Assembly (NCBI GenBank): GCA_020635905.1
Contig: JACJYV010000004.1
Span: 243,142-307,141, forward strand
DNA: 64,000 bases
Direction: 5' to 3'
Source: Bacteroidia bacterium
GTDB lineage: Bacteria; Bacteroidota; Bacteroidia; J057; JADKCL01
This document shows, piece after piece, positions 5,143-55,454 of this stretch. The notes beneath the pieces were generated by a model. It was not told the DNA's origin, ran no database searches, and worked only from the letters and a program-made list of their open reading frames with translations. Made by a program: the position numbers and the translations under genes. The stretch's first letter is position 1, and each line of letters opens with the position of its first letter.

Positions 5143-5256
5143 AAAATAGCCGTCAGCGATCAGCGTTCAGCCTAAACAGGAACTGGAAGATACTCACCCA
5201 AAATGGATCAGAATCCACAACGCAACCGTAAACCGTAAACCGTAAACTGGCTAAAA
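5143..5256. repeat. heptanucleotide-phased intergenic tract (R1)
   Basis: Fills the gap between convergent stops at 5142 and 5257. Parses as aaaatag ccgtcag cgatcag cgttcag cctaaac ... acgcaac cgtaaac cgtaaac cgtaaac tggctaa. Confidence 0.8.
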
Positions 5257-7918: not shown

Positions 7919-7934
7919 TCACTGATGGAACAAT

Positions 7935-7969
7935 AAAAAAGGCGTCCTCTTGCGGGGACGCCTTTTTTT
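7935..7969. terminator. bidirectional intrinsic terminator
   Basis: A-run, GGCGTCC(TC)/(GG)GGACGCC stem, then T7-run. Lies between the convergent gene ends at 7918 and 7987. Confidence 0.75.
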
Positions 7970-7986
7970 ATGCCTTGATTTTCCGG

Positions 7987-8457: not shown

Positions 8458-8492
8458 AAGCGTTAATTTTGGTTTATGAGGTTTTAAATTAT

Positions 8493-8614
8493 GGGGACCT
8501 CTAAAAACGATGAAGATCAAGGCGGACGCAGGTGAGGAAAGCGGAGTTTACTAAGGTAAATGAGCATTTCCGAACCAAGTCCAACGCAGAGATTCGAAGT
8601 TTTTTGAGGTTCCC
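8493..8614 (+). mobile_element. MITE-like 122-bp element, copy 1
   Basis: Ends are GGGGACCTCTAAAAAC ... GTTTTTTGAGGTTCCC, which are inverted. Flanked by the direct duplication TTAT (8489-8492 and 8615-8618). Homologous to the copies at 27868 and 33034. Confidence 0.7.
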
Positions 8615-8855
8615 TTATGCAAAATTATCAATCCCTGTCTTTCCGAACAAACCATTTCTTTCTGCATTCATATTGGGACCTCCAAATATTTCTGAAAACC
8701 CGATGTTTTAGCCTCCCTTCTCACTGTTTTTCCCCTGACAAAACTTTTTTCAGGAAAAAACAGGGCCTATCCAGTTTAAACCCAGATCGGATTTTTTGGG
8801 GTTGACTATCTGAAGGAAATGTTAGAATTTGCTTCAAAATCAACGTTTTAAAGGC

Positions 8856-15056: not shown

Positions 15057-15117
15057 GGGGTAAGTGAGCATTTCTGAAACAAGTTCAACGCTGATATTCA
15101 AAGGTTTAGGGGTTCCC
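15057..15117 (+). mobile_element. MITE-like element, truncated/degenerate copy 4 (right half)
   Basis: ggggtaagtgagcatttctgaaacaagttcaacgctgatattcaaaggtttaggggttccc aligns to the right half of the full copies. No matching left end and no flanking duplication. Confidence 0.55.
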
Positions 15118-17899: not shown

Positions 17900-19345
17900 A
17901 TGTTCGGAATTGAAATCATTGAAGTAGCCCTCGGCCTGGCCCTGGTATATTTTGCCGTGAGCACCATTTGCTCGGGCATTTACGAAGCTTTTGCCCAGCT
18001 GACCGACAAACGCTCCAAGCACCTGGAAGACGGTATTCGCAAGTTTCTTAACGACGAAGCCACTTCCTCCAACCCCAGCGGACTGGCCACTGCACTCTAT
18101 TCAAATCCCGAAATCTGGTCGCGCCTGGAAGGAAAAATCGGCAAAAAAGACTGGATTGAAGCCTCTAAGTTCTCGGGGGTTCTATTCGATATTCTCGTGC
18201 CCAAAGACGAGGCCCAGGAATCAGATTTTGTGAAAAATCTGAAGTCAGAGATCAACAAAACCATGACTGATCCTGGTATTCAGAAAACGCTCAACCGCAT
18301 TGTGGGCGTGTTGGAAACCCCGATTGTGGGCACCCTAAAGGGCATTCTGGAGGATTATTACAAGGATTCGCCTCTCGCGGGCCAAATCATGGAGATTTTT
18401 CAGGGCATTGATCCTGCCACCCAGTGCAAAGACTGTTACGACGAATTGCTGGGCCGACTGCGCGCCCTGAATCTGCCTGATGGAGAGTTTGCTGCCGCAA
18501 AGGAAACCCTGGATGCCCTGGTGCGGGAAGGGGATAAGTTTGCCAATGTGAAAGAATTGATTCGCCTGCGCTTCTCCAATGACAAAATCGAGGAAGCGGC
18601 CCTCAATCTGGTGAGCAAATGGGAGGAAAGCGAAAAAATCATCAAATTCCGTACCCGGCTCGCCGACCGCCTGCGCGACAATAAAATACAAAAGACCCTG
18701 CTGGCCAAGATTGACGCCGCCGAGGGCAAAATCGCTGATGTACGCAAAACCATGGAATCCGTCTTTGATGAGGCCATGGGAGATGTGGGCAAATGGTATC
18801 GTGCCAATGTGCGCATGGTGATCCTGGTCCTCTCGGTGATCATCACTGTGGGTTTCAACGTAGATACCCTCGAACTGGGGCGTGAACTCTGGAACGACAA
18901 CGACCTGCGGGCCGCAACCCTGGTCACGGTGCAGCAGGTGGTGGAGAAAAAATCTGAGGTTTGGTCCCCCAAGCAAGACCCCAATGCAGTGGAAACTGCC
19001 CCTGGGGTGGAAGTAGCAGAGGCCGATACCAGTGGCGGTCAAACTGTTTCCGAACTTCCCGAACCTACTCCCGCGGACACCAGTGGAAAATCCATTGGTG
19101 AAATTCTCCAGGAAGCACAGGTGGCCGTGGATAAAATGGAAACCCTGCCCGTCGGCTGGAATTTTAATGGCAATTTCTGGGACCTCAACTTCAGCAAAGG
19201 TAAAACGGGCAATAAACTCTGGGCTTCCATTCTGCTGAAAATTCTGGGCTTTGTAATGACCATCGCCGCAGCGTCTCTTGGTGCACCCTTCTGGTATAAT
19301 CTGCTCAAAAGCCTCACCAGCCTGAAGGACAAGATAGCCAAGTAA
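17900..19345 (+). CDS. hypothetical membrane protein
   Basis: 481 aa. One N-terminal TM, a long charged helical middle, then two further TM segments (MVILVLSVIITVGF; ILLKILGFVMTIAAASLGAPFWY). No motif I can name. Confidence 0.5.
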   Translation: MFGIEIIEVALGLALVYFAVSTICSGIYEAFAQLTDKRSKHLEDGIRKFLNDEATSSNPSGLATALYSNPEIWSRLEGKIGKKDWIEASKFSGVLFDILVPKDEAQESDFVKNLKSEINKTMTDPGIQKTLNRIVGVLETPIVGTLKGILEDYYKDSPLAGQIMEIFQGIDPATQCKDCYDELLGRLRALNLPDGEFAAAKETLDALVREGDKFANVKELIRLRFSNDKIEEAALNLVSKWEESEKIIKFRTRLADRLRDNKIQKTLLAKIDAAEGKIADVRKTMESVFDEAMGDVGKWYRANVRMVILVLSVIITVGFNVDTLELGRELWNDNDLRAATLVTVQQVVEKKSEVWSPKQDPNAVETAPGVEVAEADTSGGQTVSELPEPTPADTSGKSIGEILQEAQVAVDKMETLPVGWNFNGNFWDLNFSKGKTGNKLWASILLKILGFVMTIAAASLGAPFWYNLLKSLTSLKDKIAK

Positions 19346-19490
19346 TCAATTAACAATTAGCAGAGAGCAATGAACGGAAATCAATTGTCAATTAGCAGAG
19401 AGCAATGAACCTTTGCTTCTTCTCTTACATCTGATATCTAACTGTCTAAAATCTAATTGTCTGACATCTAAAATCTAATTCTCTAAAATC
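19346..19490. repeat. heptanucleotide-phased intergenic tract (R2) with 35-bp higher-order repeat
   Basis: Runs stop-to-stop between convergent genes. tcaatta acaatta gcagaga gcaatga acggaaa is repeated 35 nt later; then come tctaaaa/tctaatt-type units. Confidence 0.8.
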
Positions 19491-20789
19491 TTATTTAAAA
19501 TAATTGATATGAGCAATCCCCACCAACTGGTGGTTGCGGTCGGTGAAGTTTTTGTAATAAACCAGGATAGAATAGACGTTTTCCGTCTCATAATGGGACC
19601 CTTCCAGGCGTGATTCGTCGAGGTGGCCTGTTTTTCCGTCTTTGACTACGTATTGGTAATCGTACACGCCCTGCTTGAGCAGGACGCCCGTTTCGTAGCG
19701 GCGGGTATCTGCATTGAAAACACACTCAAATTCATCCTGAGCCCGCCAATCCGTCATTTTACTGAAGAGATACACCTTGTCATTGCCCATGGATTCGGGA
19801 AAATTGAGGGAAAATTTCACCAGCAGGTAATCAGCTTCGTAGTCGGCATTGGGCCATTCCTGCACCCCCACAAAGTAGCTGCCATTGAAATCGTACTGAC
19901 TCAGGTAGCGATTGGTGAGGCGGGGTTCCTCGGGCCAGAGACGCACGTAAAAGATGGAATCGAGGTCGCGCACGCTTTCCATGCGCTGAGAATGGAAGCG
20001 GGTGCTGCGCAGGTCCACCATGCGGTATTCGTTGCCTCCTTTGAATTCCGTGGCTGCATCAAAAACATACTGTAAACGATCGCCCTGCACAAACTGAGGT
20101 TGCACGTGAGTGGCGGCATTATCCCAACGAAAATTCTGCAGAATCACCACTTCAAGGTCCTGGTAGGGGTTATTGATCTGCATGCCGCTGGTAAAGAGGT
20201 CAAAGGAAACTGTTTGCAGGCGCATGCGCTGCGATACGTCAATGGTCTGACCCACATTGGGTTTGATCCCCACCTTATTATCTGCCACGATCATCCTGCG
20301 GCTGAAGGTGATATCTTCCTCGTCGCCCGCACGGTACACATACAACAGGTAATTTCCACTTTGGGTGAAGGCGATTCGCTCGGGATCCAGGATGTATTCG
20401 TAGTGAAAATAAGGCACTTTGGTGTTCTGTGATCGCTGCCAGTTGTAGATGCGGTCGTAGGTGACCCCGTCCAGAAATTCAATGGGAAGCACGTTTACGG
20501 GCTCCCAGTTGGCATCGGCAGGCAGAAAACCCACGTAGAAATCCTCGGGATCCTGGTCCCAGGGCACCAGTTCGTCGAATTCGAGGATGAGACGACCGGG
20601 CGAGCGCAGGGGAATGATGGGATAGCCCATTTCATTGCCTTCCACATAAAACTGAATGGTACGAATAGCCGGGTCGTACACCATGTCGCGGTATTCCAGG
20701 GTCGCATTTTGGGCGAAATTGAAGCCGGGGAGGAGGGAGGCGATCAGGAGAACGCTCCAAAGGGGAAGGATTTTGAATAAATTTTGCAT
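19491..20789 (-). CDS. secreted protein, DUF5103-like (T9SS-associated family; family name tentative)
   Basis: Track ORF trimmed to ATG 20789 (MQNLFKILPLWSVLLIASLLPGFNFAQ). Beta-rich, with C-terminal GVYDYQYVV and a YKNF..R tail resembling that family. Confidence 0.55.
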   Translation of the reverse strand: MQNLFKILPLWSVLLIASLLPGFNFAQNATLEYRDMVYDPAIRTIQFYVEGNEMGYPIIPLRSPGRLILEFDELVPWDQDPEDFYVGFLPADANWEPVNVLPIEFLDGVTYDRIYNWQRSQNTKVPYFHYEYILDPERIAFTQSGNYLLYVYRAGDEEDITFSRRMIVADNKVGIKPNVGQTIDVSQRMRLQTVSFDLFTSGMQINNPYQDLEVVILQNFRWDNAATHVQPQFVQGDRLQYVFDAATEFKGGNEYRMVDLRSTRFHSQRMESVRDLDSIFYVRLWPEEPRLTNRYLSQYDFNGSYFVGVQEWPNADYEADYLLVKFSLNFPESMGNDKVYLFSKMTDWRAQDEFECVFNADTRRYETGVLLKQGVYDYQYVVKDGKTGHLDESRLEGSHYETENVYSILVYYKNFTDRNHQLVGIAHINYFK

Positions 20790-23925: not shown

Positions 23926-24930
23926 ATGGAAAAGTTTACTGGAATTGCCTTTCCCCGAGCTGCCCTGGTGGGAAATCCTTCTGACGGTTATCACGGCAAG
24001 ACCATTGCGTTTGTGTTCAGCAATTTTCAGGCAGAAGTGGAAATTGAGCCCTCAGATTTGCTGGAAATCGTGCCTGGAGAGCGGGATAATTTGACTTTTA
24101 GCAGCCTGGGGGAATTGGTTCAGGGAATTGATCTGTATGGATATTACGGGGGAATTCGCCTGATCAAAGCCGCTTTGAAGGTGTTTTACACCTATTTTAC
24201 CCGCGAAGGCTTCAAAGTTCCTGCGGCCAATTTTCGCATCAGCTATCGCTCCAATATTCCCAATCGCCTGGGCCTGGCTGGCTCCAGCGCCATTATTACG
24301 GCCACATTTCGGGCGCTGATGGGTTTTTATAAAGTGGAATTACCCCCGCCTTTGCTGGCTATGCTGGTTCTTTCCGTGGAAACCAAAGAATTGAGGATTC
24401 CAGCAGGTTTGCAGGATCGGGTGGCTCAGGCCTATGAGCAGCCCGTTTTCATGAATTTTTCCCGGGAAAAATTCGATCCTGTATTGGGTGGTCAATATGA
24501 GCCCTTTCCCAAAAGCTGGTTGCCTGATATTTATCTGGCTTTCGACCGCGGGGCGGCCCTGGGCTCAGAAGTGAGTCATGCTGATTTACGGGAGCGTTTT
24601 GAGCAGGGCCAGGGTGGAGTGAGGCAGGCCATGCATGGCTTTGCCCAGCTCACAGATCAGGCCATGGGCCTGATGCGGCAGGGGAGAGGCCGGGAAATCG
24701 GGCCTCTGCTGGATCAGAATTTTGAACTTCGCAAAACGATCATGGCCCTGAATCCGCGGGATGTCCGCATGGTGGAACTGGCCCGCGGATGCGGGGTGAG
24801 CGCTAAGTTTACGGGGTCAGGAGGAGCGATAATTGGCACGTATGAAGGTGAAAATCAATTTAATCACCTGAAAACTGAAATGAAAAAATCGGGCATTGAG
24901 GTGATCAAACCTGCTGTTATGGGGAATTAG
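23926..24930 (+). CDS. GHMP kinase, glucuronokinase-like
   Basis: GHMP motif NIPNRLGLAGSSAI. Also a motif set I recall from plant glucuronokinase: GNPSDGYHGKTI, GYYGGIRL, AGLQDRVAQAY, MVELAR...KFTGSGGA. Confidence 0.72.
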   Translation: MEKFTGIAFPRAALVGNPSDGYHGKTIAFVFSNFQAEVEIEPSDLLEIVPGERDNLTFSSLGELVQGIDLYGYYGGIRLIKAALKVFYTYFTREGFKVPAANFRISYRSNIPNRLGLAGSSAIITATFRALMGFYKVELPPPLLAMLVLSVETKELRIPAGLQDRVAQAYEQPVFMNFSREKFDPVLGGQYEPFPKSWLPDIYLAFDRGAALGSEVSHADLRERFEQGQGGVRQAMHGFAQLTDQAMGLMRQGRGREIGPLLDQNFELRKTIMALNPRDVRMVELARGCGVSAKFTGSGGAIIGTYEGENQFNHLKTEMKKSGIEVIKPAVMGN

Positions 24931-25336: not shown

Positions 25337-25924
25337 ATGAGAGGTTTTAGCAATCCCGACGAATATTTTGCCAATCAGGATCATTTTGCTGCTGAACAAT
25401 TGCGGCTACGCGAGATTTTCCTGAAGACAGAACTCAAGGAAGAAATGAAATGGGGAGGCCCCATTTATACCCTCAAAGGCAAGAATGTGGCCGCTATGGG
25501 CGCTTTCAAATCTTATGTGGGCATCTGGTTTCACCAGGGAGTTTTTCTGAAAGATCCTGCCAAAGTGCTGATCAATGCCCAGGAAGGTGTGACCAAAGCC
25601 TTGCGGCAATGGAGATTTGATTCCATGGCTGAGATTGACGAAAAATTGATTTTGGAATATCTGGCAGAAGCCATTCAAAACATGAAGGAGGGCAAGGTAA
25701 TGAAACCCCAGCCCAAACCTCTCCTTATTCCCTTAGAACTGGAAAATGCGCTCAAAAAAGATGCTGTTTTGAACGAAAGTTTTGAGTCACTGAGCCAGGG
25801 TTGCAAGAAGGAATATGCGGGCTACATCCTCGAAGCCAAACGCGAAGAAACCCGTCTTGCCCGGGTGGAAAAGATCATTCCCATGATCCTGAAAAAAGTG
25901 GGTTTGAATGACAGGTATAAATAA
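25337..25924 (+). CDS. DUF1801 plus YdeI/OmpD-associated family protein
   Basis: 195 aa. N-terminal YdhG-like region (EEMKWGGPIYT...VAAMGAFKSYVGIWF). C-terminal YdeI-type region (KKEYAGYILEAKREETRLARVEKII). Confidence 0.7.
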   Translation: MRGFSNPDEYFANQDHFAAEQLRLREIFLKTELKEEMKWGGPIYTLKGKNVAAMGAFKSYVGIWFHQGVFLKDPAKVLINAQEGVTKALRQWRFDSMAEIDEKLILEYLAEAIQNMKEGKVMKPQPKPLLIPLELENALKKDAVLNESFESLSQGCKKEYAGYILEAKREETRLARVEKIIPMILKKVGLNDRYK

Positions 25925-25997
25925 GCTTCGGGCTGCCCCAGGCTTCAAGCCAATTGAGGAACTTACAACTCACAACTTACAACTAATCCCCAACCAA
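25925..25997. repeat. heptanucleotide-phased intergenic tract (R3)
   Basis: Runs stop-to-stop. Parses as gcttcgg gctgccc caggctt caagcca attgagg aacttac aactcac aacttac aactaat. Confidence 0.75.
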
Positions 25998-26864
25998 CTA
26001 TTCCAAATCTAAACTCCTCAACCATTCCCGCAAGGCAGGACCTGTGCCTTCCTTTTTCAGGCCGAAGTGAACGTTGGCTTTGATGAAATCAAGGGTGTTG
26101 CCCACGTCGTGCCGTCGGCCTTCGAAACGAAGGCCGTACATGGCCCGGTCACGGAGCATGGCCCGCATGGCGTCGGCCAGTTGGATTTCCTGGTGAAGAC
26201 CAGGTTGGGTTTGGTCCAGATAATCAAAGATTTCTGCAGTAAAAATATAGCGCCCGGCAATCGCCAGGCGCGATGGGGCTACCTCCTGACTGGGTTTTTC
26301 AACCCAGTCTTCCGCCAGCCAGAGATTTTCAGAAATCTCTTTTCCTTTCAATATTCCATAACGACTGACCATTTCCATAGGAACTTCCTCCAGGGCAATT
26401 ACCGGGTCCTGGTAACGGTCAAAAACCTTCATCAGTTGGGCGGTGACAGGGGTGGAATCTGATTCAACAATTGAATCACCCAGGAGTACAGCAAAAGCCT
26501 CATTGCCAACATGATAACGGGCGTAACGTATAGCATCACCCAAGCCGTTCAGCTCCTTTTGCCAGACAAAATGAATGTCTGCCAGATTGGAAATCCTGCG
26601 GATTCTTTTCAGCAATTTTTCCTTGCCCTGTTCGGCCAGTTGTTGCTCCAGTTCCCAGTTGCGGTCAAAATGTTCCTCAATGGCGCGCTTGCCCTTGCCA
26701 ATGATCATCAGAATGTCCGTAATGCCCGAAGCCACTGCCTCCTCCACCACATATTCGATCACAGGCGTATCCACCACTGGCAACATTTCCTTGGGCTGCG
26801 ACTTCGTCGCAGGCAGCATCCGCGTTCCAAATCCCGCAGCAGGTATGACGGCTTTTTTGATCAA
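25998..26864 (-). CDS. galU: UTP--glucose-1-phosphate uridylyltransferase (GalU-type sugar-1-phosphate nucleotidyltransferase)
   Basis: 288 aa. The N-terminus KAVIPAAGFGTRMLPATKSQPKEMLPVVD is the classical GalU signature. TTG start at 26864. Confidence 0.88.
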   Translation of the reverse strand: MIKKAVIPAAGFGTRMLPATKSQPKEMLPVVDTPVIEYVVEEAVASGITDILMIIGKGKRAIEEHFDRNWELEQQLAEQGKEKLLKRIRRISNLADIHFVWQKELNGLGDAIRYARYHVGNEAFAVLLGDSIVESDSTPVTAQLMKVFDRYQDPVIALEEVPMEMVSRYGILKGKEISENLWLAEDWVEKPSQEVAPSRLAIAGRYIFTAEIFDYLDQTQPGLHQEIQLADAMRAMLRDRAMYGLRFEGRRHDVGNTLDFIKANVHFGLKKEGTGPALREWLRSLDLE

Positions 26865-27037
26865 GTTCAGATTTTAGATTTTAGATGGATAGATTTTAGA
26901 GGTTAGTCTTGAGTCCTTAGTCCTTAGAGGTAAGATAAAAGACAGTTCAAGTTTCGCCACTCGCCACTCGCCACTCGCCACTTGAAACTCTGAACTTACA
27001 ACCACCCGCTCGCAGCTCGAAGCCAGCAGCTTGAAGC
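26865..27037. repeat. heptanucleotide-phased intergenic tract (R4)
   Basis: 23 consecutive units between the galU start and the MIOX stop. 11 end in AG, 7 in AC (including TCGCCAC x4) and 5 in GC. Only 3 units are not exactly 7 nt. Confidence 0.85.
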
Positions 27038-27850
27038 CTAAAAATAAACGGGGGCTTTGCCGAGATATTTCTCAATGATGGGCTGATAATACTCCATCAG
27101 TTGGTCGAGGTTGTAGGTGACGGGAGCTTTGGTGTACAGATCAAACAGGTTGAATTCGCGCACCCACTCTTTGTACTGCTCGTCGCGGTCATCATCGAGG
27201 AGGGAATAGGCTCCGTGGCTGTGCCAGGGGTAAAATGAGTGGTAACGGACCATGATCATGCCCGCTTCAGGGATGCGGTTTTCTGGATGGTGGCTCAGCA
27301 CCTGAAACAGATATTCGTCGTGTCCCCAGGCTTTGAGGCAATTGTCAATGCCGCAATTGGCTTCGTACATGCCCAGGGGGGTAAAATAATCCGGGTTTTC
27401 CATGTCGGGATTCAACTCATTGAATTCGGGAAAAACCACGCCCTGCGGCAGCTGACATCCCACCAGAAAAATATCGCCCACCAGGCCCCATTGCTCTTTG
27501 AGCGAGGTGCCGTCCTCGTCGCAACCCCACAGGTACATGACCTTGCCCAGGTCATGGATGAGGGCCACCAACTGAAACCAATCGGGTTTTCCGGCACGTC
27601 TGGCGCCTTCTGCGGCCTGCAAAAGGTGCTGTACATTGGGCAGGTCCATGTCGGGATCGCTGAGATCCACGAAGTCATTCAGGCCCTCCAGGGCCTGACG
27701 GATGGTCATGGGATGGTCGAAGGTCAGGTATTTGGCCTGCATCCTTCTGACGTAGGCAACCGTCTGATTTTGGCGCATTTTGCGGTAATTTTCGCGCACA
27801 GCGGGCAGCAAATGCCCGGTTTCGTAATTGCGGAATTGGGTCTTTTCCAT
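27038..27850 (-). CDS. myo-inositol oxygenase
   Basis: About 270 aa with MIOX/HD-type di-iron motifs: LIHDLGKV, AWGHDEY, RYHSFYPWH, and C-terminal DLYTK. Trimmed to ATG 27850; the longer ORF reads into the MITE. Confidence 0.85.
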   Translation of the reverse strand: MEKTQFRNYETGHLLPAVRENYRKMRQNQTVAYVRRMQAKYLTFDHPMTIRQALEGLNDFVDLSDPDMDLPNVQHLLQAAEGARRAGKPDWFQLVALIHDLGKVMYLWGCDEDGTSLKEQWGLVGDIFLVGCQLPQGVVFPEFNELNPDMENPDYFTPLGMYEANCGIDNCLKAWGHDEYLFQVLSHHPENRIPEAGMIMVRYHSFYPWHSHGAYSLLDDDRDEQYKEWVREFNLFDLYTKAPVTYNLDQLMEYYQPIIEKYLGKAPVYF

Positions 27851-27867
27851 GGGGTGAAGATAATAAA

Positions 27868-27989
27868 GGGAACCTCTAAAAACAAAGAAGATCAAGGCGG
27901 ACGCAGGTGAAGAAAGCGGAGTTTACTACCGTAAATGAGCATTTCTGAGCCAAGTCCAACGCAGAGATTCGAAGTTTGTAGAGGTTCCC
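27868..27989 (+). mobile_element. MITE-like 122-bp element, copy 2
   Basis: GGGAACCTCTAAAAAC ... GTTTGTAGAGGTTCCC, with 15 of 16 TIR positions matching. Flanked by the direct duplication TAAA (27864-27867 and 27990-27993). Confidence 0.72.
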
Positions 27990-28093
27990 TAAATTTTGCG
28001 GCCTTCCCCAAGGCGTGCTTTCTCATTTGAATAAATGTGAATATGCTTTAGCTTTGCCTCAACGATGCACGCAAAAAACACATACCCAGCCGT

Positions 28094-29452
28094 TTGGCTA
28101 AGCAGATGATGGTTTGGCTTTTGATCAAAGTACCCTGGTATTTTTTACGGGCCATGTGGGCTTTCCTGCTTGGTTTGGGCAAGGGGAAAGGTCAGACCTG
28201 GTATGCAGGGGAATTTCTGGTTGCGCGGGATGATTTTCGCCTTTCTGCACCCGAAAAAGAAAGCCGTTTGGTGGGGTTGAAGATTTATGTGCGGACTTTG
28301 AGAGCCATTTTCAAAAATTCCAAACCCTCCCTGGAAAAGCTGGCTGACGCGTCCGTGGGAATTTATGATTCGCGCATGGCCAACCTCAAACTGCGCACGG
28401 AGTACGTGGAAGCCCAAAGTGGAGAAAAAGTAGGTACTTTTATCAGCAGTTCGGGCTTGTTGTATGGGGAGGGATTTTTGCAAAAAATCCTGCTTTTCTG
28501 CATGCTGAGTGGATTTTTCTCCTTTCTCTGGCCCTTCACGATTTTGAGCAAATACAGGGCCAATCTGGCTCAGATCATGCCCGATACGGTGCGGGTAATC
28601 AATCTGTTGCGCATCCTCAGAAAGCATAAAATCAGCAGGCTGTATTACTTTTTCATTTTTGAAATTTATGCCAATGTGGCCGCTCAGGTACTGATGAGCG
28701 AAGGAATCACCCTCCTGAAAGTCACGTCCATGTCGCCCCTCACTTTCCATGCGAGGGTGGTGATTGCCAGTGAATTATGCGTGAATACGGCTTACCAGAT
28801 GGAGGAAACCCGCATCTTTAAAGACACTTTGTTTGTAGGGAAATTTCACCTCTGGGCTCCTGAAATGTACATGGATCACATTGAAAAGTACCGCGAGGCT
28901 GATCCTGAAGCTACTCCAAAACATGTATTGGGGTATTATTCAAGTGGTTATGAATTGAGGTTCAGCCTGGGCGAATCACATACGGGTTTTTTCGGCGATC
29001 CAGAATCTGACGACATGTTGCGGGAATATCTGCGGGAATATCTTTTGAGCCATCCTGAAGTCAAACTGAAAATCTTTTTGCATCCCTTTGAAAAGCGCTC
29101 AGATGAGCGCTATGCTCAGGCCACGAAGTATTATTTTGACCATTTTCAGGGCTGTAATATTGAGATTATGGGTCGGGATATTTCCACCGTGGGCAGTCTG
29201 GAATTGGTGGATGTAGCGCTTTCTGTTTTGTCCAATTCTCTGGCTGACCGCCTCTATTTTGGTTACAAAGGTCTTTTTACTCCGTTCACCGTGGATCGCC
29301 TGCCTGCGCCCGGCACTTCGCTGGAGGCCATTTGTGCCAAATCCAAAGCGCATTTATTTGAGTTACTTGACCGCAGTATGGCCCAGAGCACGGATGAGTT
29401 TTTCAGGGAAAATAAGATTGATAATTACCGTTTCAGGCGAAATAAAACCTGA
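28094..29452 (+). CDS. hypothetical protein (N-terminal TM; C-terminal half vaguely GT-B/TagF-like)
   Basis: 452-aa ORF with a TTG start; ATG 28106 is an alternative. No firm motif. The C-terminal pattern KIFLHPFEKR...VDVALSVLSNSLADRLYFGYKGLF resembles the HP...SS..-E core of GT-B transferases. Confidence 0.5.
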   Translation: MAKQMMVWLLIKVPWYFLRAMWAFLLGLGKGKGQTWYAGEFLVARDDFRLSAPEKESRLVGLKIYVRTLRAIFKNSKPSLEKLADASVGIYDSRMANLKLRTEYVEAQSGEKVGTFISSSGLLYGEGFLQKILLFCMLSGFFSFLWPFTILSKYRANLAQIMPDTVRVINLLRILRKHKISRLYYFFIFEIYANVAAQVLMSEGITLLKVTSMSPLTFHARVVIASELCVNTAYQMEETRIFKDTLFVGKFHLWAPEMYMDHIEKYREADPEATPKHVLGYYSSGYELRFSLGESHTGFFGDPESDDMLREYLREYLLSHPEVKLKIFLHPFEKRSDERYAQATKYYFDHFQGCNIEIMGRDISTVGSLELVDVALSVLSNSLADRLYFGYKGLFTPFTVDRLPAPGTSLEAICAKSKAHLFELLDRSMAQSTDEFFRENKIDNYRFRRNKT

Positions 29453-32990: not shown

Positions 32991-33033
32991 CAACCAGACT
33001 TTTTAAAGGTCTGAATTTTTGCCGTTAAATAAA

Positions 33034-33154
33034 GGGGACCTCTAAAAACAAAGAAGGTCAGGGCGGACGCAGTTCCAGAAAGCGAAGTTTACCGGGGTAA
33101 ATGAGCATTTCTGAAACAAATCCAACCCAGAGATTCAAAGATTTTGGAGTTCCC
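33034..33154 (+). mobile_element. MITE-like 121-bp element, copy 3
   Basis: Homologous along its length to copies 1 and 2. Flanked by the direct duplication TAAA (33030-33033 and 33155-33158). Ends 19 nt before ATG 33174. Confidence 0.7.
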
Positions 33155-33173
33155 TAAAGAAAATAAGCTAAAA

Positions 33174-33935: not shown

Positions 33936-34021
33936 GTTGCGAGCCTTTAGCTGCGAGCTGCAAGCAAAATTCTCGCCACTCGAAACTCGCCACTCGAACC
34001 TCACTACTCGAACCTCGCTAC
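33936..34021. repeat. heptanucleotide-phased intergenic tract (R5)
   Basis: 12 units in perfect phase with no indel, running stop-to-stop: gttgcga gccttta gctgcga gctgcaa gcaaaat tctcgcc actcgaa actcgcc actcgaa cctcact actcgaa cctcgct. Confidence 0.85.
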
Positions 34022-35389
34022 TCAAGAAAATACTTCTTTAAAGACTTCCTCCAGTCTTGAAAATCCTTTGATTTTAATGTTTTTGAATTTGCCTTCCAGG
34101 CCTTTGAGTTGGCGGGAGGAAAGGTAAATTTCCTTGAAACCCAGCTTTTCAGCTTCGCTGATACGCTGTTCAATGCGTTGCACGGCTCTCAATTCGCCGG
34201 CCAGGCCCACTTCAGCGGCAAAAACCCGCGTTTTGTCAATTGGCAGGTCGTGGGCCGAACTGATCACTGCGAGAATCAGCCCCAGGTCCAGGGCTGGGTC
34301 ATCGACCCGAATGCCGCCCGCCATGTTGATAAACACGTCTTTGGTGCCCATTTTGAAGCCGCAGCGCTTTTCCAGCACGGCCAGCAGCATATTCAGTCTG
34401 CGCAGATCAAAGCCAGTGGCAGACCGTTGGGCAACCCCATAGGCCATGGGCGTGACCAGGGCCTGGGTTTCGATCAAAAGGGGCCGCAGGCCCTCCATAG
34501 TGGCGCTGATGGCCACCCCACTGAATTCCTCGTCGCCCGTGGAAAGGAAGATTTCTGAAGGATTATTCACTTCCCGCAAACCGCCGCTGTGCATTTCATA
34601 AATACCCAGCTCGAGGGTGGAGCCAAAGCGGTTTTTTACCGTGCGCACCACCCGAAAATTGTGGTGGCGATCGCCTTCAAAAGTCAGAACGGCATCCACC
34701 GTGTGTTCCAGCACCTTGGGACCAGCCAGGTGACCTTCCTTGGTGATGTGTCCTACCAGAAAGACGGGCACCTGGCTTTGCTTGGCCAGCCGCATGAAGC
34801 GGGAAGCGCATTCGCGGACCTGGGAAACGCTGCCCGGGGCTGAGTCAAGTTCCTCGGTATAAACGGTTTGGATGGAATCAATGATCAGTAGTTCGGGCTT
34901 GAGTTCGTGGAAAGAATGGATGATTTTCTCCATGCTGGTTTCGGCCACGATGTACAGGTCGGGATTGACGGAAGCAATGCGGTCGGCCCGCATTTTGATC
35001 TGTCGCTCAGATTCCTCGCCAGATACGTACAGGGTTTTCAACCCGTTGAGCTGAAGGGCCACCTGAAGCAGGAGGGTTGATTTTCCTATTCCTGGTTCGC
35101 CGCCCAGCAGAATGATCGATCCCAACACAATTCCCCCGCCCAGCACACGGTTCATCTCAGCATCAGGCACCAGAATCCGTTTCTCCTCAATGGAATCGAT
35201 TTCCACTAATGGTCTCGGCTTGCTGGCTGGCGTGACGGGCATGGCAGACTGGCTGGCTGTTGCCGCACGTTTGTCCACGATTTCTTCCGTCAGGGTATTC
35301 CATTCACCACAAACCGAACACTGACCCTGCCATTTTCCATGATTGGCCCCACAACTGCTGCAGATGAATACGGTTTTTAATTTTGACAT
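34022..35389 (-). CDS. radA: DNA repair protein RadA/Sms
   Basis: N-terminal C4 zinc finger (CSSCG...CSVCGEW), Walker A GEPGIGKST, KNRFG motif and a Lon-like C-terminal domain. Confidence 0.95.
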   Translation of the reverse strand: MSKLKTVFICSSCGANHGKWQGQCSVCGEWNTLTEEIVDKRAATASQSAMPVTPASKPRPLVEIDSIEEKRILVPDAEMNRVLGGGIVLGSIILLGGEPGIGKSTLLLQVALQLNGLKTLYVSGEESERQIKMRADRIASVNPDLYIVAETSMEKIIHSFHELKPELLIIDSIQTVYTEELDSAPGSVSQVRECASRFMRLAKQSQVPVFLVGHITKEGHLAGPKVLEHTVDAVLTFEGDRHHNFRVVRTVKNRFGSTLELGIYEMHSGGLREVNNPSEIFLSTGDEEFSGVAISATMEGLRPLLIETQALVTPMAYGVAQRSATGFDLRRLNMLLAVLEKRCGFKMGTKDVFINMAGGIRVDDPALDLGLILAVISSAHDLPIDKTRVFAAEVGLAGELRAVQRIEQRISEAEKLGFKEIYLSSRQLKGLEGKFKNIKIKGFSRLEEVFKEVFS

Positions 35390-35509
35390 AACGTTTTACG
35401 GTTTACGGTTTACGGTTTACGGTTTACGGTTCTATGTTGTAAGTTCCCACAAGGTGGTGCCTTTGGCATGAGTTGTAAGTTGATAGGTAATTTCTCTAAT
35501 CTCTAATCT
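35390..35509. repeat. heptanucleotide-phased intergenic tract (R6)
   Basis: TACGGTT x5 (35397-35431), then gtaagtt / tgtaagt units, then tctaatc tctaatc. Runs from the radA start codon to the upstream gene's stop. Confidence 0.85.
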
Positions 35510-36250
35510 CTAAATCCCAAAACTCCGGCTGCGGGACAAAAATTCCTGAATTACGGGTTCATTTGCGCTGAACAGTTCTTCGGCAGTGCCCCAAAAATGA
35601 AGTTTTTTCTCGTGAATGAGAGCCACTTTGGTGGCGATTTTTCGTACGGTGGCCAGGTCATGGGTGATCACCACGGAGGTGCGGTCTTTTTCCAGGCTGA
35701 GTTGCTGGATCAGGTTGTCGATCACTTCTGAATTGACCGGGTCAAGACCCGTGGTGGGTTCGTCGTAGAAAATATAGGGAGGTTTGAGAATCACGGCCCG
35801 TGCAATGCCCACCCGTTTGCGCATCCCGCCTGAAAGTTCGGCGGGAAATTTATGCAGGATACTTTCATTCAACCCCACCTGTTCCAGCGATTCAATTACT
35901 TTTTCCCGAATCAGTTCCCTGGGCAATTTCCTTTCCTCAAATAATTTGATCCCCACATTCTGCAACACATTCAGCGAATCAAATAAGGCAGCACCCTGAA
36001 AAACCACCCCAAATTTGGTCAGAACAGGAGAAAGCTGGCTTTCCCGCAACCGCGAAATTTCGACTTCGTCCACATAAATTTTTCCAGTTTCAGGCTGAAG
36101 CAAGCCAGTGATCAGTTTCATCAAAACTGATTTCCCTGATCCACTTTTGCCAATGATGCACAACTTTTCTCCCTTCGCAATTGAAAACCCAATCTCCTGC
36201 AGCACCTCCAGGTCGGCAAAAGATTTGGATACATTTTCAAGAACGATCAT
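35510..36250 (-). CDS. ABC transporter ATP-binding protein (MlaF-like)
   Basis: 246 aa. Walker A GKSGSGKS, signature LSGGMRKR, Walker B IFYDEPT. Confidence 0.85.
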   Translation of the reverse strand: MIVLENVSKSFADLEVLQEIGFSIAKGEKLCIIGKSGSGKSVLMKLITGLLQPETGKIYVDEVEISRLRESQLSPVLTKFGVVFQGAALFDSLNVLQNVGIKLFEERKLPRELIREKVIESLEQVGLNESILHKFPAELSGGMRKRVGIARAVILKPPYIFYDEPTTGLDPVNSEVIDNLIQQLSLEKDRTSVVITHDLATVRKIATKVALIHEKKLHFWGTAEELFSANEPVIQEFLSRSRSFGI

Positions 36251-39842: not shown

Positions 39843-39931
39843 TTTTTCAGATAGGAGATTTTCAGAGGCTAGTCCTTAGTCGTTAGTCCTTAGTCGTTAG
39901 TCGTTGGGGATGGCTCGTCGCTCGCAACTCG
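39843..39931. repeat. heptanucleotide-phased intergenic tract (R7)
   Basis: Parses as agtcctt agtcgtt agtcctt agtcgtt agtcgtt ggggatg gctcgtc gctcgca. Runs from the aroC start codon to the MlaD-like stop. Confidence 0.8.
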
Positions 39932-44175: not shown

Positions 44176-44252
44176 AGGTAGCGGTCAGCTTTTAGCAGTC
44201 AGCGGTCAGCGGTCAGCAATCAGCAATCAGCAATCAGCAGTCAGCGTTCAGG
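44176..44252. repeat. heptanucleotide-phased tract (R8)
   Basis: 11 in-phase units starting at the base after the stop: aggtagc ggtcagc ttttagc agtcagc ggtcagc ggtcagc aatcagc aatcagc aatcagc agtcagc gttcagg. Confidence 0.85.
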
Positions 44253-44353
44253 CATCACCCCAATTAATGTTTCTTACTATCTGGAAGACATCAATTTGCA
44301 ATCCTGATTTATCCCCCTAATTTTACATCGTTCAATAATTTCGCAAATAACTT

Positions 44354-45560: not shown

Positions 45561-45577
45561 TAATAATCAACAGAAAT

Positions 45578-45610
45578 AAAAAACCCGGCAGTGATCCTGC
45601 CGGGTTTTTC
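45578..45610. terminator. bidirectional intrinsic terminator
   Basis: A6, CCCGGCAG tgatc CTGCCGGG, T5. Lies between the convergent ends at 45560 and 45638. Confidence 0.8.
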
Positions 45611-45637
45611 TTTGCGTAGATTTTTCAATCTCCGGGT

Positions 45638-47080: not shown

Positions 47081-47286
47081 ATATCTTGAACCGATTTCCT
47101 AATTATCCGTACTTCGTTACTTTTCCAAATTATTGCATCTGAAATGCTACATGAATCAGACACTAATTAAACTATAATTTTTCACCAATCGTAGCCTCCG
47201 AATTACTATGTAAGAATTTTATTTCTTTTGTTATTTAAAATATATGGGGGGATATGCATATTTGTATAGGATTGAAGTTAAGATAC

Positions 47287-47334
47287 TTTAGTTTAGTTAG
47301 TTTAGTTGGTTTGTTAGTTTAGTTAGTTGGTTGG
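47287..47334. repeat. low-complexity TTTAG/TTAG/TTGG tract
   Basis: tttagtttagttagtttagttggtttgttagtttagttagttggttgg. Less regular than the heptad tracts. Confidence 0.6.
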
Positions 47335-47358
47335 CCTGTTCTTTTCGAAGTTCAGGCC
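47333..47358. other. hairpin abutting the mazG stop
   Basis: GGCCTG..CTTttcgAAG..CAGGCC, followed by T8 on the plus strand. On the minus strand (mazG sense) there is no U-tract. Confidence 0.3.
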
Positions 47359-47365
47359 TCTTTTT

Positions 47366-48181: not shown

Positions 48182-48564
48182 TAAAAAAAAAGCCCCTGGT
48201 TAAGGATTCCCGGGGCATGTCTGAAAGTGATTTGGTGAAAAAAAGGAAGGTACTACTATGAAAAAGGCGTGTTTGTAAACTGAAAAAAAGTGGTTCGAAA
48301 TAACTTCTAAAGTGGAGGTTCGGGTTCAATTTGGGTAAAATTTTTCTTCATACCCTTGCTTTTGGCCTGAACGGTCAGTTTTGGGGTGACAATGGAAATA
48401 ATCATTTCATGAAAGGAAATATTACTCAACAGAAATCGTTAGCAATGTCACAACCACGCTTGAATTTCCCCGTTTAAGATTTTCCCGCATTATTTTCCCG
48501 CATTAAATTTCGCGCAATTTGTTTTCTGACTCCTGAAAACTGCTTTCCTTCATTGAATTATTCA

Positions 48565-51500
48565 ATGAAAAGGAGGAAATTCAACTTCAAATACTACGAA
48601 ATGTCACACCTCAGCCGTCTCTTTCTCACTGTTTTAGGAGCAGCCACCCTGCTGATTCTTATTTCCGCATTTCAACCCAAACCCCACAAACACAAGCCCA
48701 TGCTTACTTTTCAGCCCGGGGACACCTACGAAGACCTTTGGAAAAAGGTGGATTCCCTCAAAAATCAGGGCTTGCCCGAGTCGGCCCTGGAAGTGGTCAA
48801 CCTGATTTACGGCAAGGCCAGCCAGGATCACAACGACGCCCAGGTGGCCAAATCTTTGATTCACGTGATGCTTTTTACCGCGGCGAAGGAGGAGGAATCC
48901 ATTGTGAAAAATATTGGTCGCATGGAGGAAGAGATCAAGAAGGCACATTTTCCCCTGAAACCCGTGCTGCAATCCATGCTGGCTGAAAGCTATTATTCCT
49001 ATTACAGCAATAATTACTGGCGATTTCAAAATCGCTCAGAGACGGTCAGTTTTGACAATCTGGACATCCGTACCTGGGACCTGACCAAGGTCAGGAATGA
49101 GATTTACGCCCTGCACCAGGCCGCTTTGGAAAACAGGGACAGCCTCAAAAGAACCCCTCTTTCCCTTTTCAACGACATTCTCCAGTTGCAAACTGGCAGC
49201 CAGGATTACCGCGGCACCCTGTTCGATTTTCTGGCTCACCGCGCCATTTCCTTCTATTCCAACGACTTATTGCAGGTGAATCAGCCTGCCTGGAAATTTG
49301 ATCTGGACCAGGAAGAGGTGTTTTTGCCCGCCAAACAGTTTGCCAAACTGCAAATAACCACCCGCGACACTGGCTCCAATAAGTATAATGCCTTTTTGCT
49401 GTATCAGGATCTGGTTGATTTCCATTTAGGAGACACGGATCCCATGGCCCTGATTGATCTGGAGCGAAATCGCCTGACCTGGATGCGGTCCCATTCCGTG
49501 CTGGGTTATGCAGACAGTCTTTACCTGCAGGCTCTGGTCAGTCTGGAGAAAACCTATCCCAATCATCCTGAGATTGCCCAGGTGGGCTACGACATTGCCC
49601 GTCATTTAAACGAGCAGGGTGGCCAGTACACCCCAGGTTCTGAGCACCCCAACCGTTGGAAAATCCGCGATGCCTGGCAAAAATGTGCCGAGGTAATCAA
49701 AACCTGGAAAGCAGAAAATCCCGGGGTAATCAATTGTAAATCCCTGCAAATCGAGATTGAAACCACTTCCATTTCCGTTACCCATGAGGAGGTAAATCTG
49801 CCCGGTCAACCTTGTCGTGCACTGGTGACCTATGATAATGTGCCCAAATTATACCTGAAACTGGCCCGCCTGGAGCCTCAGCAATGGGACAACCTCAGTA
49901 ATATCTACGACGAGCAAAAGCTGGAAGCCCTCAAAAAACTGCCCGTGGTGAAGGAATGGAGCCAGGATCTGCCATTGGAAGGCGATTACCAGAGCCACCT
50001 GGCCGAGATTGAGATTCCCGGCCTGGAACTGGGTGAGTACGTTTTGCTGGCTTCCTCCTCCAATGAATTCGTTTTCAATGAGCACCAGATTTCCTTTTCG
50101 CGCATCTGGTATTCCAATCTTTCCTACAGCGCCCGCCTCGACAATAAATACGATATGTCTGTGCTGGTGCAGGACCGCGAATCGGGCGAACCCCTGAAAG
50201 GGGCCAAAGTAAGGCTGCTCAACCGCGAATACGATTACAACAGCCGTTTGTATCGCTTCATTGAAAAGGGGAATTACACCACAGACGATCAGGGTTGGGT
50301 CAAAATTCCTGCTCCATCCTCAGGCAGCCGCTACTTTAATCTGGAAGTGCGCAATGGAAAAGATCGTCTCAGCCTGAACGACAGCTACAGCCAGTATTAT
50401 TCTTCGAATAATTCTCCTCAATCTGTCCTGAGAACCACCTTTTTTATGGATCGCATGATCTATCGCCCGGGGCAGACCATTTATTTCAAAGGTCTGGTGC
50501 TGGAATTCAAGGGCGAAAATGCTTCCCTGAAAACCAATTACAAAACCACGGTTTATTTCATAGATCCCAATTATCAAACTGTTTCCACCCTCGAAGTGAC
50601 CACCAATGAATATGGAACATTCAGTGGCACTTTTACCGCTCCCCTGGGCCAGCTCAACGGGCAGTTTCACCTGCAGGACGGCAACAGTTCCCAGTATTTC
50701 AGGGTGGAAGATTATAAGCGACCCAAATTTGAAGTGAAATTCGAGCCTGTAAAAGGGAGTTTTGCCCTGGGCGGGCTGGTCAAAGTGAAGGGAAATGCCC
50801 TGGCTTACGCGGGTTCTACCATTGACGACGCCAAAGTGGCTTACCGCGTGGTGCGTCAGACCCGTTTTCCTTGGTGCTGGGGCTGGAGATGGTATCCCAG
50901 CACGGCCGACATGGAAATCACTTCAGGAGAGGTGAAAACAGACGCTGCGGGTGATTTTGAAATCGAATTCAATGCCATTCCCGACAAATCTGTGAGCAGC
51001 AAATACCTGCCTCAGTTCAATTTCATCGTCTATGCAGACGTGACGGACGTTTCAGGCGAAACCCATTCCACCCAAACTTACGTGAATGTGGGCTACGTAG
51101 CCCTGAATGCAGATTTGGTCCTGCCTGCCCAACTCGACAAGGACACAAAGTATAAAGGATTTGCCATTCGCACCACCAACCTGAACGGACAGTTCGAGCC
51201 CGCCAAAGGCAGCATTTCCCTGCAAAAACTCCGTTCTCCCAATCGTCTCATGCGCAATCGCCTGTGGGCCAAACCCGACATGTTTGTAATGAAGAAAGAG
51301 GAATTTTTGCAGAAATTTCCCCTGGATATCTACGATAATGAGGCCGATCACACACAATGGGAAGTGGAAAAGGAGGTATTCAAAACCCAGTTTGACACAG
51401 AAAAGGACGACTCACTGCAAATTCCAGGGCTGAAAGACTTTGCCGAAGGCATGTACAAAGCCATCCTGAAAACGAAGGATAAATTCGGCAAGGAAGTGAG

Positions 51501-54771: not shown

Positions 54772-54947
54772 CTGCAAGCTACGAGCTGGGGGCTGCCTGC
54801 TTCGGGCATCTGGCTGGAAGCTATTATCGGCCAGCGGTCAGTTGGCAAAGTAAAGCAAATGGGTTTTGCTAATCCATTCAATACTAAGGACTCAGGACTC
54901 CCGACTAAGGACTATTCTCTAAAATCTGACATCTAAAAATCTAACAT
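54772..54947. repeat. heptanucleotide-phased intergenic tract (R9)
   Basis: Exactly 25 units (24 x 7 nt plus one 8-nt unit = 176 nt) fill the gap from the stop at 54771 to the convergent stop at 54948. 16 units start with CT. Confidence 0.9.
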
Positions 54948-55454
54948 CTAAATCTTTACAAATCCCGACCTCAGATACTGATTTCCTTTGGAAATGAGGA
55001 TGCGATAATCGCCTTCGCGCAGGGATTCCACGTCGAGCAGGAGCAGGTTTTTGCCTTCGCGGGCGCTGTAAACCTCAGAGTGGCGGACGCGGTTGCGCTT
55101 ATTGATGATGTTGACGTGCAGGGGCGCACGCATTTTGGATTCAAAGGTGATGGTGACCAGGTAAGCCTGCTTGCCGGGATTCTGGGAAACATTGACCAAC
55201 AGGTCACTAAACAGGTCTGAGTTGGTGCGCACCCGCTTCAACTGACGGGAATTCAGGTGGCTTACGGGGTTGGAAACAGCCTCAGTGGGCTGATATTTAG
55301 GGGTTTGCAGCAGGCAGGGATGGTTGGCTTCTCCTTCGCAGGCATAGGGTGATTGGGCAAAAAGGCCGAAACCCATGCTGATAAAAATCGCACCAAACAG
55401 AAAAATACGAAGATTTGCCCCAAAAGCGGGCCAGAAAGGGGTCGAAGGAATCAT
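54948..55454 (-). CDS. small secreted protein, possible T9SS C-terminal sorting domain
   Basis: 168 aa with a hydrophobic N-terminus. The C-terminal beta-rich segment (LHVNIINKRNRV...LLLLDVESLREGDYRILISKGNQYLRSGFVKI) resembles Por secretion tails. Confidence 0.45.
   Translation of the reverse strand: MIPSTPFWPAFGANLRIFLFGAIFISMGFGLFAQSPYACEGEANHPCLLQTPKYQPTEAVSNPVSHLNSRQLKRVRTNSDLFSDLLVNVSQNPGKQAYLVTITFESKMRAPLHVNIINKRNRVRHSEVYSAREGKNLLLLDVESLREGDYRILISKGNQYLRSGFVKI

Follow-up and report, generated by a model that had tools for sequence, protein, structure and literature searches.

The window analysed here is a stretch of 64,000 nucleotides from a Bacteroidia bacterium (GenBank assembly GCA_020635905.1, contig JACJYV010000004.1, positions 243,142 to 307,141), and the element in question is the 173-nt gap (26865-27037 of the window) between the genes for myo-inositol oxygenase (MIOX) and UTP-glucose-1-phosphate uridylyltransferase (galU), both on the minus strand. 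This spacer consists of two back-to-back arrays of 7-nt units (heptads) with opposite strand polarity, joined at 26942-26953, where register and GC skew both switch. By its sequence the tract falls into a class of repeats known from earlier work on cyanobacteria, Xanthomonas and a few Bacteroidetes. An initial inspection of the letters (the sequence-only reading) had treated it as singular; it is in fact one of about ten in the 64 kb. We propose, with somewhat more confidence than doubt, that the arrays are a slippage-generated family resembling the short tandemly repeated repetitive (STRR) sequences and subject to a polarity filter, that neither promoter nor terminator is detectable in the spacer, across which MIOX and galU are probably co-transcribed, and that its distal part would be a passive leader for galU.

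Across 26865-27037 the self-match is 0.608 at period 7 and 0.22-0.28 at the other periods from 3 to 12, and in 5000 base shuffles the top self-match at any period from 2 to 14 stayed at or below 0.39, compared with 0.61 observed. Tandem Repeats Finder (TRF) detected five sub-arrays within the spacer, of which (TCGCCAC)x4.1 at 26954-26982 is perfect. By self-match, shuffles and TRF the spacer has the tandem heptamer structure of an intergenic heptanucleotide simple sequence repeat (SSR) or STRR-like array. The 23-unit parse of 26871-27037 offered by the sequence-only reading was reproduced exactly, with twenty units of 7 nt and three of 8, 10 and 9 nt (in order 7, 7, 8, then seven of 7, 10, 9, then eleven of 7), and with unit endings as described: AG in eleven, AC in seven and GC in five. 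The tract also fills the whole gap, as had been stated, adjoining the MIOX TAG stop (27038-27040) and beginning 6 nt from the galU TTG (26862-26864). A single register common to all units was not borne out: wherever a unit departs from 7 nt the phase moves, by +1 at 26885-26892 and +5 at 26942-26953, and strict phase is kept only in 26893-26941 (7 units) and 26954-27037 (12 units, with the AC-to-GC change inside).

The strand composition changes with the register. GC skew on the plus strand is +0.43 in the first half of the spacer and -0.37 in the second; on the sense strand of the two genes, the 88 nt at the MIOX stop contain 35 G and 16 C, and the 85 nt at galU contain 8 G and 20 C (C/G = 2.5, C content 24%). 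When duplicate units were collapsed, the terminal columns of the units, which the sequence-only reading took as a dinucleotide "anchor", were not significantly more conserved than the other columns (p=0.19 and p=0.47). A selectively conserved anchor was considered and rejected, being not significant in the spacer and only marginal (p=0.03) in pooled arrays that had themselves been picked by an anchored pattern search. Small open reading frames (ORFs) of 43 and 42 aa within the tract were treated as repeat artefacts.

A sliding scan of the window found 11 tracts of period 7 but only 2 of period 6 and a single one of period 8, all of the period-7 tracts being intergenic except one weak tract inside a gene (51818-51859). 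Heptad arrays are present in 9 of the 35 intergenic regions. There are 15 exact tandem heptamer duplications (about 4 expected by chance in our own arithmetic, 64,000 x 4^-7) and none at period 8. The same words are used repeatedly: CTAAGGA is intergenic in 6/6 occurrences (three regions) and TCTAAAA in 9/11 (four regions), AACTTAC, GTTGTAA and AACCGTA each occur in three regions, and the exact AACCGTA array at 5224 is the reverse complement of the array at 35395. The window therefore contains what STRR-like arrays are known for, namely many arrays, non-coding location and reuse of words. Above the level of single words, the AG part of the spacer (26865-26934) can be aligned, each unit with its counterpart, to 39843-39912 and to 54880-54952 read as reverse complement, the pattern common to the three loci being attttag x2, atgNNag, attttag, agNNtag and then tccttag in varying number. 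These alignments score better than order-shuffled units (p=0.004, 0.004 and <0.002). The AC part resembles 33973-34023 at 70-76%, and GCT-type words, read in sense, directly follow five stop codons, those of MIOX and of the genes ending at 25924, 33935, 39932 and 54771, where the words start at 25925, 33936, 39931 (minus strand) and 54772, respectively.

Because the arrays have a common vocabulary and the unit order is the same at three loci, we read the sub-arrays of the spacer as copies of genome-wide dispersed modules and not as three local expansions. The earlier proposal of concatenated heptad sub-arrays is thus retained, without its three local decayed expansions, since the AG and AC parts match other intergenic loci. 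The "stepwise change of anchor" from AG to AC to GC holds as a description of unit endings; with modules common to several loci, it is largely inherited as the order of those modules. The composite module was not found in any of 160 loci (1.24 Mb) of other Bacteroidota fetched via MIOX and galU. The 11-nt sequence GAACTTACAAC occurs in direct orientation at 25959-25969 and 26992-27002, within the heptad tracts bracketing galU, and twice more at 35436-35482 (in total five matches with at most one mismatch, 0.58 expected); the pair flanking galU could be a recombination footprint or mere shared vocabulary. At the end of a 2072-aa ORF (48553-54771) the stop codon runs directly into eight GCT-anchored heptads (GCTGCAA GCTACGA GCTGGGG and so on).

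The arrays are unevenly distributed with respect to gene orientation. In the window they are found in 5/9 convergent, 4/16 co-directional and 0/10 divergent intergenic regions (divergent 0/10 versus 9/25 of the others, p=0.036), and in the pooled set of the window plus the 160 loci the corresponding figures are 15/132, 13/306 and 3/138 (convergent versus divergent, p=0.003). Strand polarity was tested in the pooled set on heptad-periodic 42-nt segments beside gene ends, using crude ORF calls. Such segments make up 17/554 of the stop-adjacent and 4/564 of the start-adjacent positions (p=0.004). The sense strand has more G than C in 13 stop-adjacent heptad segments and the reverse in 2, with a mean skew of +0.28 compared with -0.01 for non-heptad stop-adjacent segments (p=6e-4), and C exceeds G in 4/4 start-adjacent ones. 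The rule is that the G-poor strand runs 5' to 3' into the neighbouring gene, and both halves of the MIOX-galU spacer obey it. Depletion between divergent genes, placement at gene ends and strand polarity, all of them properties of STRR-like arrays, are found together here.

Three other causes of the skew were considered and rejected. Stop codons in all frames would not explain the G-rich stop-adjacent arrays, as (GTGGCGA)n holds no stop triplet; transcription-coupled deamination is at odds with the opposite skew of start-adjacent arrays and with stop-adjacent arrays lacking an excess of T over A; and replication strand is at odds with both polarities lying within 90 nt of each other in the MIOX-galU spacer.

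The start of galU assigned at the TTG codon is sound: 12 nt before it there is a TAA in frame, and a start at the next ATG would lose the conserved GxGTR motif. For MIOX, the TTG at which the mechanical ORF begins precedes the ATG given in the NCBI record by 45 nt (27851-27895); the resulting N-terminal extension, MIFFVFRGSLYYLHP, overlaps a dispersed element of about 125 nt (described below) and is probably not translated. Motif scanning found no sigma-70-like site on the galU (minus) strand of the spacer, and a scan for the Bacteroidota promoter elements (-33 TTTG / -7 TAnnTTTG) found no -7 box with at most one mismatch inside 26865-27037. The one sequence that comes close, TATTTTTA at 27039-27046, shares bases with the MIOX stop codon; the TAnnTTTG motif is present in several divergent regions of the window. 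No terminator-like hairpin with T-run was detected in 26400-27500, and such motifs are at background frequency over the 60 kb scanned. The folding z-scores of the spacer against shuffled sequence are 0.0 in sense and +0.5 in antisense. No inverted repeats were found inside the spacer, so it is not a palindrome of the miniature inverted-repeat transposable element (MITE) or repetitive extragenic palindromic (REP) type. An Rfam search gave one tRNA and nothing else for the whole window at the gathering score, and no match for 26800-28100 at E<=5. No G-quadruplex motif of four G3 runs was found on either strand; one GG-N5 x4 stretch is present in (GTGGCGA)4.

Lack of structure is general among the heptad regions, all nine in the window having z-scores from -1.8 to +1.8, while strong hairpins (z from -3.4 to -4.4) are present in two of the four heptad-free convergent regions (7919-7986 and 45561-45637). 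This suggests that a gene end may carry either of two kinds of element, a heptad region or a hairpin region.

MIOX and galU are probably on one mRNA, this being the simplest reading because no recognisable promoter or terminator was found in the spacer by motif and folding scans. A link that favours an operon comes from related loci (L001, L005, L012, L024, L065 and L083-L156 were those listed for linkage of kinase, galU and MIOX): a GHMP-family kinase gene lies directly upstream of galU in 58/80 related galU loci, and 5/80 related MIOX loci are near such a kinase/galU pair, in one case as a co-directional kinase-galU-MIOX string (L005). In the window the kinase gene (23926-24930, plus strand) is split from galU (minus strand), with two small genes between them. 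The linkage of the three genes suggests a salvage route from myo-inositol through glucuronate and glucuronate-1-P to UDP-glucuronate.

The galU leader is suited to initiation without a Shine-Dalgarno (SD) sequence. In Flavobacterium johnsoniae, weak structure, an A at -3 and scarcity of AUGs close by tune SD-independent initiation (PMC6847099). For galU, ATG, GTG and TTG are all missing from the 85 nt that precede the start, position -3 is A, and the folding energy from -40 to +20 is -0.8 kcal/mol (median -6.0), which ranks galU second among 53 genes for lack of structure. The remaining two heptad-led genes rank third and fifth of the 53, and three such ranks together have p=4e-4.

We looked for the locus and its parts elsewhere. 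Among GTDB genomes, JGI metagenomes and a 5.8-billion-protein set, the MIOX next in similarity reaches 69% identity and the closest galU from a metagenome 68%. Synteny of MIOX and galU is not conserved, galU being nearby in 5/80 MIOX loci and the arrangement of the window being seen in none of them. The sole other public assembly of the MIOX-galU locus found is a Logan contig (SRR12358675), of which positions 1-97 (L081:1-97) are identical to window 26865-26961; it terminates inside the perfect (GTGGCGA)4, which may reflect copy-number heterogeneity or repeat-induced branching of the assembly graph. Exact-protein look-ups with MIOX (both starts) and two genes neighbouring sister arrays returned no further assembly.

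In several distant Bacteroidota MIOX is directly followed by heptad arrays made of other words. A metagenome-assembled genome (MAG) labelled Spirosoma has GTCTAAC/GTCCAAC units over about 340 nt directly after MIOX (L063:6842-7183), and Sinomicrobium weinanense has 15 copies of GGTTCAA there (L066:6808-6936). Downstream of MIOX in a Cytophagales MAG (L067:6812-6935), inverted arrays of CAGTTTT-type and AACTGAA-type words form a stem of about 35 bp that encloses a canonical GC-rich terminator hairpin (minimum free energy -92.9 kcal/mol, z=-14.3), and a similar inverted heptad pair was seen in Aquirufa (L078, z=-6.2).

STRR heptanucleotides were reportedly described in Calothrix and Anabaena by Mazel et al. 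in 1990. The arrays of the window resemble the cyanobacterial STRR in being a few genome-specific heptamers in tandem in many intergenic regions, including intra-operon spacers, and differ in phylum and in words, CCCCAGT, TTGGTCA and CAACAGT never being in tandem here. Indeed none of seven named words (STRR1-3, TAACTGA, GGGAATC and the GGGGAYT variants) has a tandem copy in the window. A close match in position is with the GGGAATC heptamers of Xanthomonas and the GGGGAYT heptamers of Nostoc/Anabaena, which are about 90% intergenic, near the upstream ORF, rare between divergent ORFs and variable in array length, with the G-rich strand coding just after stops and non-coding just before starts (Rehm et al. 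2015, PMC4692102). Tandem 7-nt units, intergenic placement near the upstream ORF, scarcity between divergent genes, variable array length and the polarity are the same in our arrays; the words here, however, are not G-tract motifs and hold no four G3 runs, many words are combined in one tract, and multi-word modules recur between loci. TAACTGA direct repeats are known from Beggiatoaceae, Cyanobacteria and five Bacteroidetes, immediately before start codons lacking an SD sequence, along with larger multi-heptamer assemblages in Bacteroidetes intergenic regions where assemblies often break (MacGregor 2015, PMC4679880). Heptamer arrays also upstream of starts, multi-heptamer assemblages and assembly breaks are common to both cases, whereas the window has no TAACTGA repeat and most of its arrays follow stops rather than precede starts. 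In the long simple sequence repeat (LSSR) survey of Mrazek et al. (2007), as represented in PMC4679880, heptanucleotides are the most abundant long-unit class and polymerase slippage is favoured at 7 nt; to that extent the survey covers abundance and not module order or polarity. Intrinsic terminators and REP/MITE palindromes likewise occupy gene 3' flanks, and the inverted arrays of the Cytophagales MAG extend a terminator hairpin, but the spacer is without inverted symmetry or stable fold.

From these observations we derive the following course of events. Replication slippage would create and resize runs of 7-nt units, and recombination or gene conversion between arrays would spread the vocabulary and the multi-word modules among intergenic regions. 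The arrays survive at gene ends and not in the promoter-bearing divergent regions, as the distribution given above shows. Between MIOX and galU, the G-rich array after the stop and the G-poor, A/C-rich array before the start together make an unstructured intercistronic spacer, the two genes being presumably transcribed as one mRNA, and the galU-proximal array, by its composition and folding, would be a passive, open and start-codon-free leader suiting SD-independent initiation at a weak TTG. Several points weigh against this account. The polarity statistics come from crude ORF calls and just 21 heptad segments, 4 of them start-adjacent, and a passively filtered by-product does not obviously account for G-rich arrays after stops. 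Openness of the leader is in part what any G-poor direct repeat would show, and speaks for suitability, not for selection. Co-transcription is deduced from missing motifs only, and a non-canonical promoter or a Rho-dependent stop may sit in the spacer. Slippage and exchange between arrays are deduced from the short perfect runs and from the module order common to several loci, and were not seen as polymorphism.

Other explanations give the arrays a more active part. If the heptads were sites for a single-strand nucleic-acid binder with a footprint of about 7 nt (a cold-shock-domain protein or S1), regulating galU translation and marking on RNA where genes begin and end, the arrays would actively encode post-transcriptional regulation instead of being filler that is tolerated. 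The limited and reused vocabulary, the module order kept across loci, the strict orientation relative to genes and the similar CT[A/G]A words in distant Bacteroidota (TCTAAMA, GTCTAAC, ATCTAAC, AACTGAA) agree with such a factor, and MacGregor (2015) proposed the same for TAACTGA repeats upstream of start codons, naming S1 and Csp as candidate heptamer binders and CspB as binding one heptamer per protein (PMC4679880). We nevertheless consider it unlikely, given that words vary widely between lineages and between arrays of one genome with no single conserved motif, that the "anchor" positions are not significantly conserved, that most arrays lie downstream of stops and not upstream of starts, and that no candidate binding protein was identified. 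The arrays might alternatively be Rho-dependent terminators or polarity elements, in which a G-poor, C-containing, unstructured array acts as a Rho utilization (rut) site on transcripts entering genes, blocking convergent read-through and antisense transcription and making transcription of galU depend on whether ribosomes load there. In the sense spacer the distal 85 nt would offer Rho an unstructured stretch with its excess of C over G and with YC dinucleotides about 7 nt apart, and the lack of structure in the heptad regions, the hairpins in half of the heptad-free convergent regions and the background frequency of hairpin and T-run motifs in the window point the same way. Against this proposal, itself drawn from composition and folding, are the low C content with A dominating, which makes a weak rut site, the distal position of the C-rich half, by which termination would land in the next gene, and the long hairpins formed by inverted arrays in some relatives (z = -14 and -6), which are incompatible with Rho loading; we regard it as distinctly unlikely.

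The arrays might also serve as portable homology that mediates rearrangement, galU having been brought beside MIOX and the spacer being a functionless junction product. The kinase-galU pair seen in 58/80 related loci is indeed split in the window, and the arrays bracketing galU carry GAACTTACAAC in direct orientation (25959 and 26992); the 11-nt repeat, however, may be shared vocabulary, as it is also present at 35436-35482, no ancestral arrangement is known from a close relative, and in Xanthomonas the heptamer-repeat regions are more syntenic than controls (Rehm et al., PMC4692102). Such a recombination scar is in our view very improbable. A phase-variable contingency repeat, in which heptad copy number would tune galU via promoter spacing or leader length, is suggested by the slippage-prone perfect short runs, (TCGCCAC)4.1 and (ATTTTAG)2, and by the Logan unitig end inside a perfect run, which could reflect copy-number heterogeneity. 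No promoter elements were found flanking the repeat, though, the neighbouring genes are metabolic, and the arrays are mostly at the 3' ends of ordinary metabolic genes; Rehm et al. judged phase variation unlikely for their heptamers since the repeat-associated genes mostly serve general metabolism and not surface or adaptation functions (PMC4692102). This last possibility is exceedingly improbable to us. The slippage-generated, polarity-filtered family with a passive spacer remains our preferred reading. The features of the spacer and its sister tracts are collected in Table 1.

Table 1. Positions in the window of the MIOX-galU spacer, its parts, the flanking genes and the sister heptad tracts
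Feature	Position	Strand	Remark
Whole MIOX-galU spacer, heptad-periodic throughout	26865..27037	.	self-match 0.61, five TRF sub-arrays
galU-proximal array, CTAAAAT / CTAAGGA-type units in sense; A/C-rich, G-poor; copy of dispersed composite module	26869..26941	-	
Junction acagttcaagtt; register +5, GC skew sign flips; 10- and 9-nt units	26942..26953	.	
Perfect (TCGCCAC)x4.1 = (GTGGCGA)4 in sense	26954..26982	+	TRF 100% matches
Diverged AC-ending units TTGAAAC TCTGAAC TTACAAC, in phase with perfect array; contain GAACTTACAAC	26983..27004	+	
MIOX-stop-proximal G-rich units, sense GCTTCAA GCTGCTG GCTTCGA GCTGCGA GCGGGTG	27005..27037	-	
galU, UTP-glucose-1-phosphate uridylyltransferase, TTG start	25998..26864	-	TIGR01099 349.6 bits, cutoff 326.8
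Myo-inositol oxygenase (MIOX), 270 aa from ATG at 27850	27038..27850	-	100% identical to NCBI MAG protein with PF05153
Sister tract, TCAGCGN x3 and (AACCGTA)x3.4	5143..5256	+	second array = reverse complement of 35395 array
Sister tract, TCTAAAA / TCTAACT / TCTGACA array	19415..19495	+	
Sister tract, AACTTAC-type, galU 3' end	25949..26004	+	
Sister tract, GCTGCGA-type words then CTCGCCA/CTCGAAA array	33936..34023	+	
Sister tract, (TACGGTT)x5, GTTGTAAGTT, (TCTCTAA)x3	35390..35513	.	
Sister composite tract, module order of the spacer: G-rich words, then CTAAGGA/CTAACGA, then CTGAAAAT	39843..39931	-	
Sister tract, (AGCRRTC)x11	44176..44256	+	
Sister composite tract, same module order as spacer, downstream of 2072-aa ORF	54772..54952	+	

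Other repeated elements were noted in the window. A dispersed element of about 125 nt is present at 8490-8618, 27865-27993 and 33031-33159 and in part at 15057-15117, its copies being 81-91% identical. Folding gives an imperfect hairpin of considerable length, with GGGRACCTCTAAAAAC and GTTTTTRGAGGTTCCC as its closing sequences (42 pairs, 2 compensatory), and Rfam has no match to it. All copies are in divergent intergenic regions beside gene starts, one of them directly upstream of the MIOX ATG, and the element could be MITE-like or a structured leader. It has the terminal inverted repeats and stable hairpin typical of MITE and REP-type palindromes, which the heptad spacer does not. Two or three direct repeats of TGCGGGAAWAT, which may be a candidate regulator binding site, are found at 29019-29043 (plus strand) inside ORF 28094-29452 and, as reverse complement, at 48479-48516, in the intergenic stretch before the 2072-aa ORF. 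At 19344-19410, between a stop codon and the TCTAAAA heptad array, the 35-nt unit AATCAATTAACAATTAGCAGAGAGCAATGAACGGA is tandemly duplicated with 93% identity. The only sizeable non-heptad simple repeat in the window is a TTAG/TTTAG array (period 4, 5 or 9) at 47287-47332, in intergenic region 47081-47365.

For the two flanking genes the practical consequence of the tract is small; galU on the MIOX transcript would fit salvage of myo-inositol to UDP-glucuronate. A wider idea, quite improbable in our estimate, is that heptad arrays are a polar gene-boundary signal across Cyanobacteria, Xanthomonas, Beggiatoaceae and Bacteroidota, read on single-stranded RNA or DNA by a factor with a 7-nt footprint (a cold-shock/S1-type OB fold or Rho). 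If so, the orientation of the arrays, with the G-poor strand running into the gene, and the order of the words, from GCT-type at the stop through CTAAGGA to CTAAAAT beside the next gene, would encode the stop and restart of transcripts or ribosomes, and the arrays would replace hairpin terminators in this genome. Among the simple repeats of bacteria with long units, heptanucleotide arrays are the most common, and they are unusually dense in this Bacteroidia genome. The position and polarity rules described for G-quadruplex-type heptamers are here extended, in Bacteroidota, to words unable to form quadruplexes, and since the polarity rule holds for such words we argue that it does not concern quadruplex structure. 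To these rules the present analysis adds that multi-word modules recur in a fixed order, that heptad arrays and hairpins apparently alternate at gene ends, and that the initiation regions of heptad-led genes are very open.

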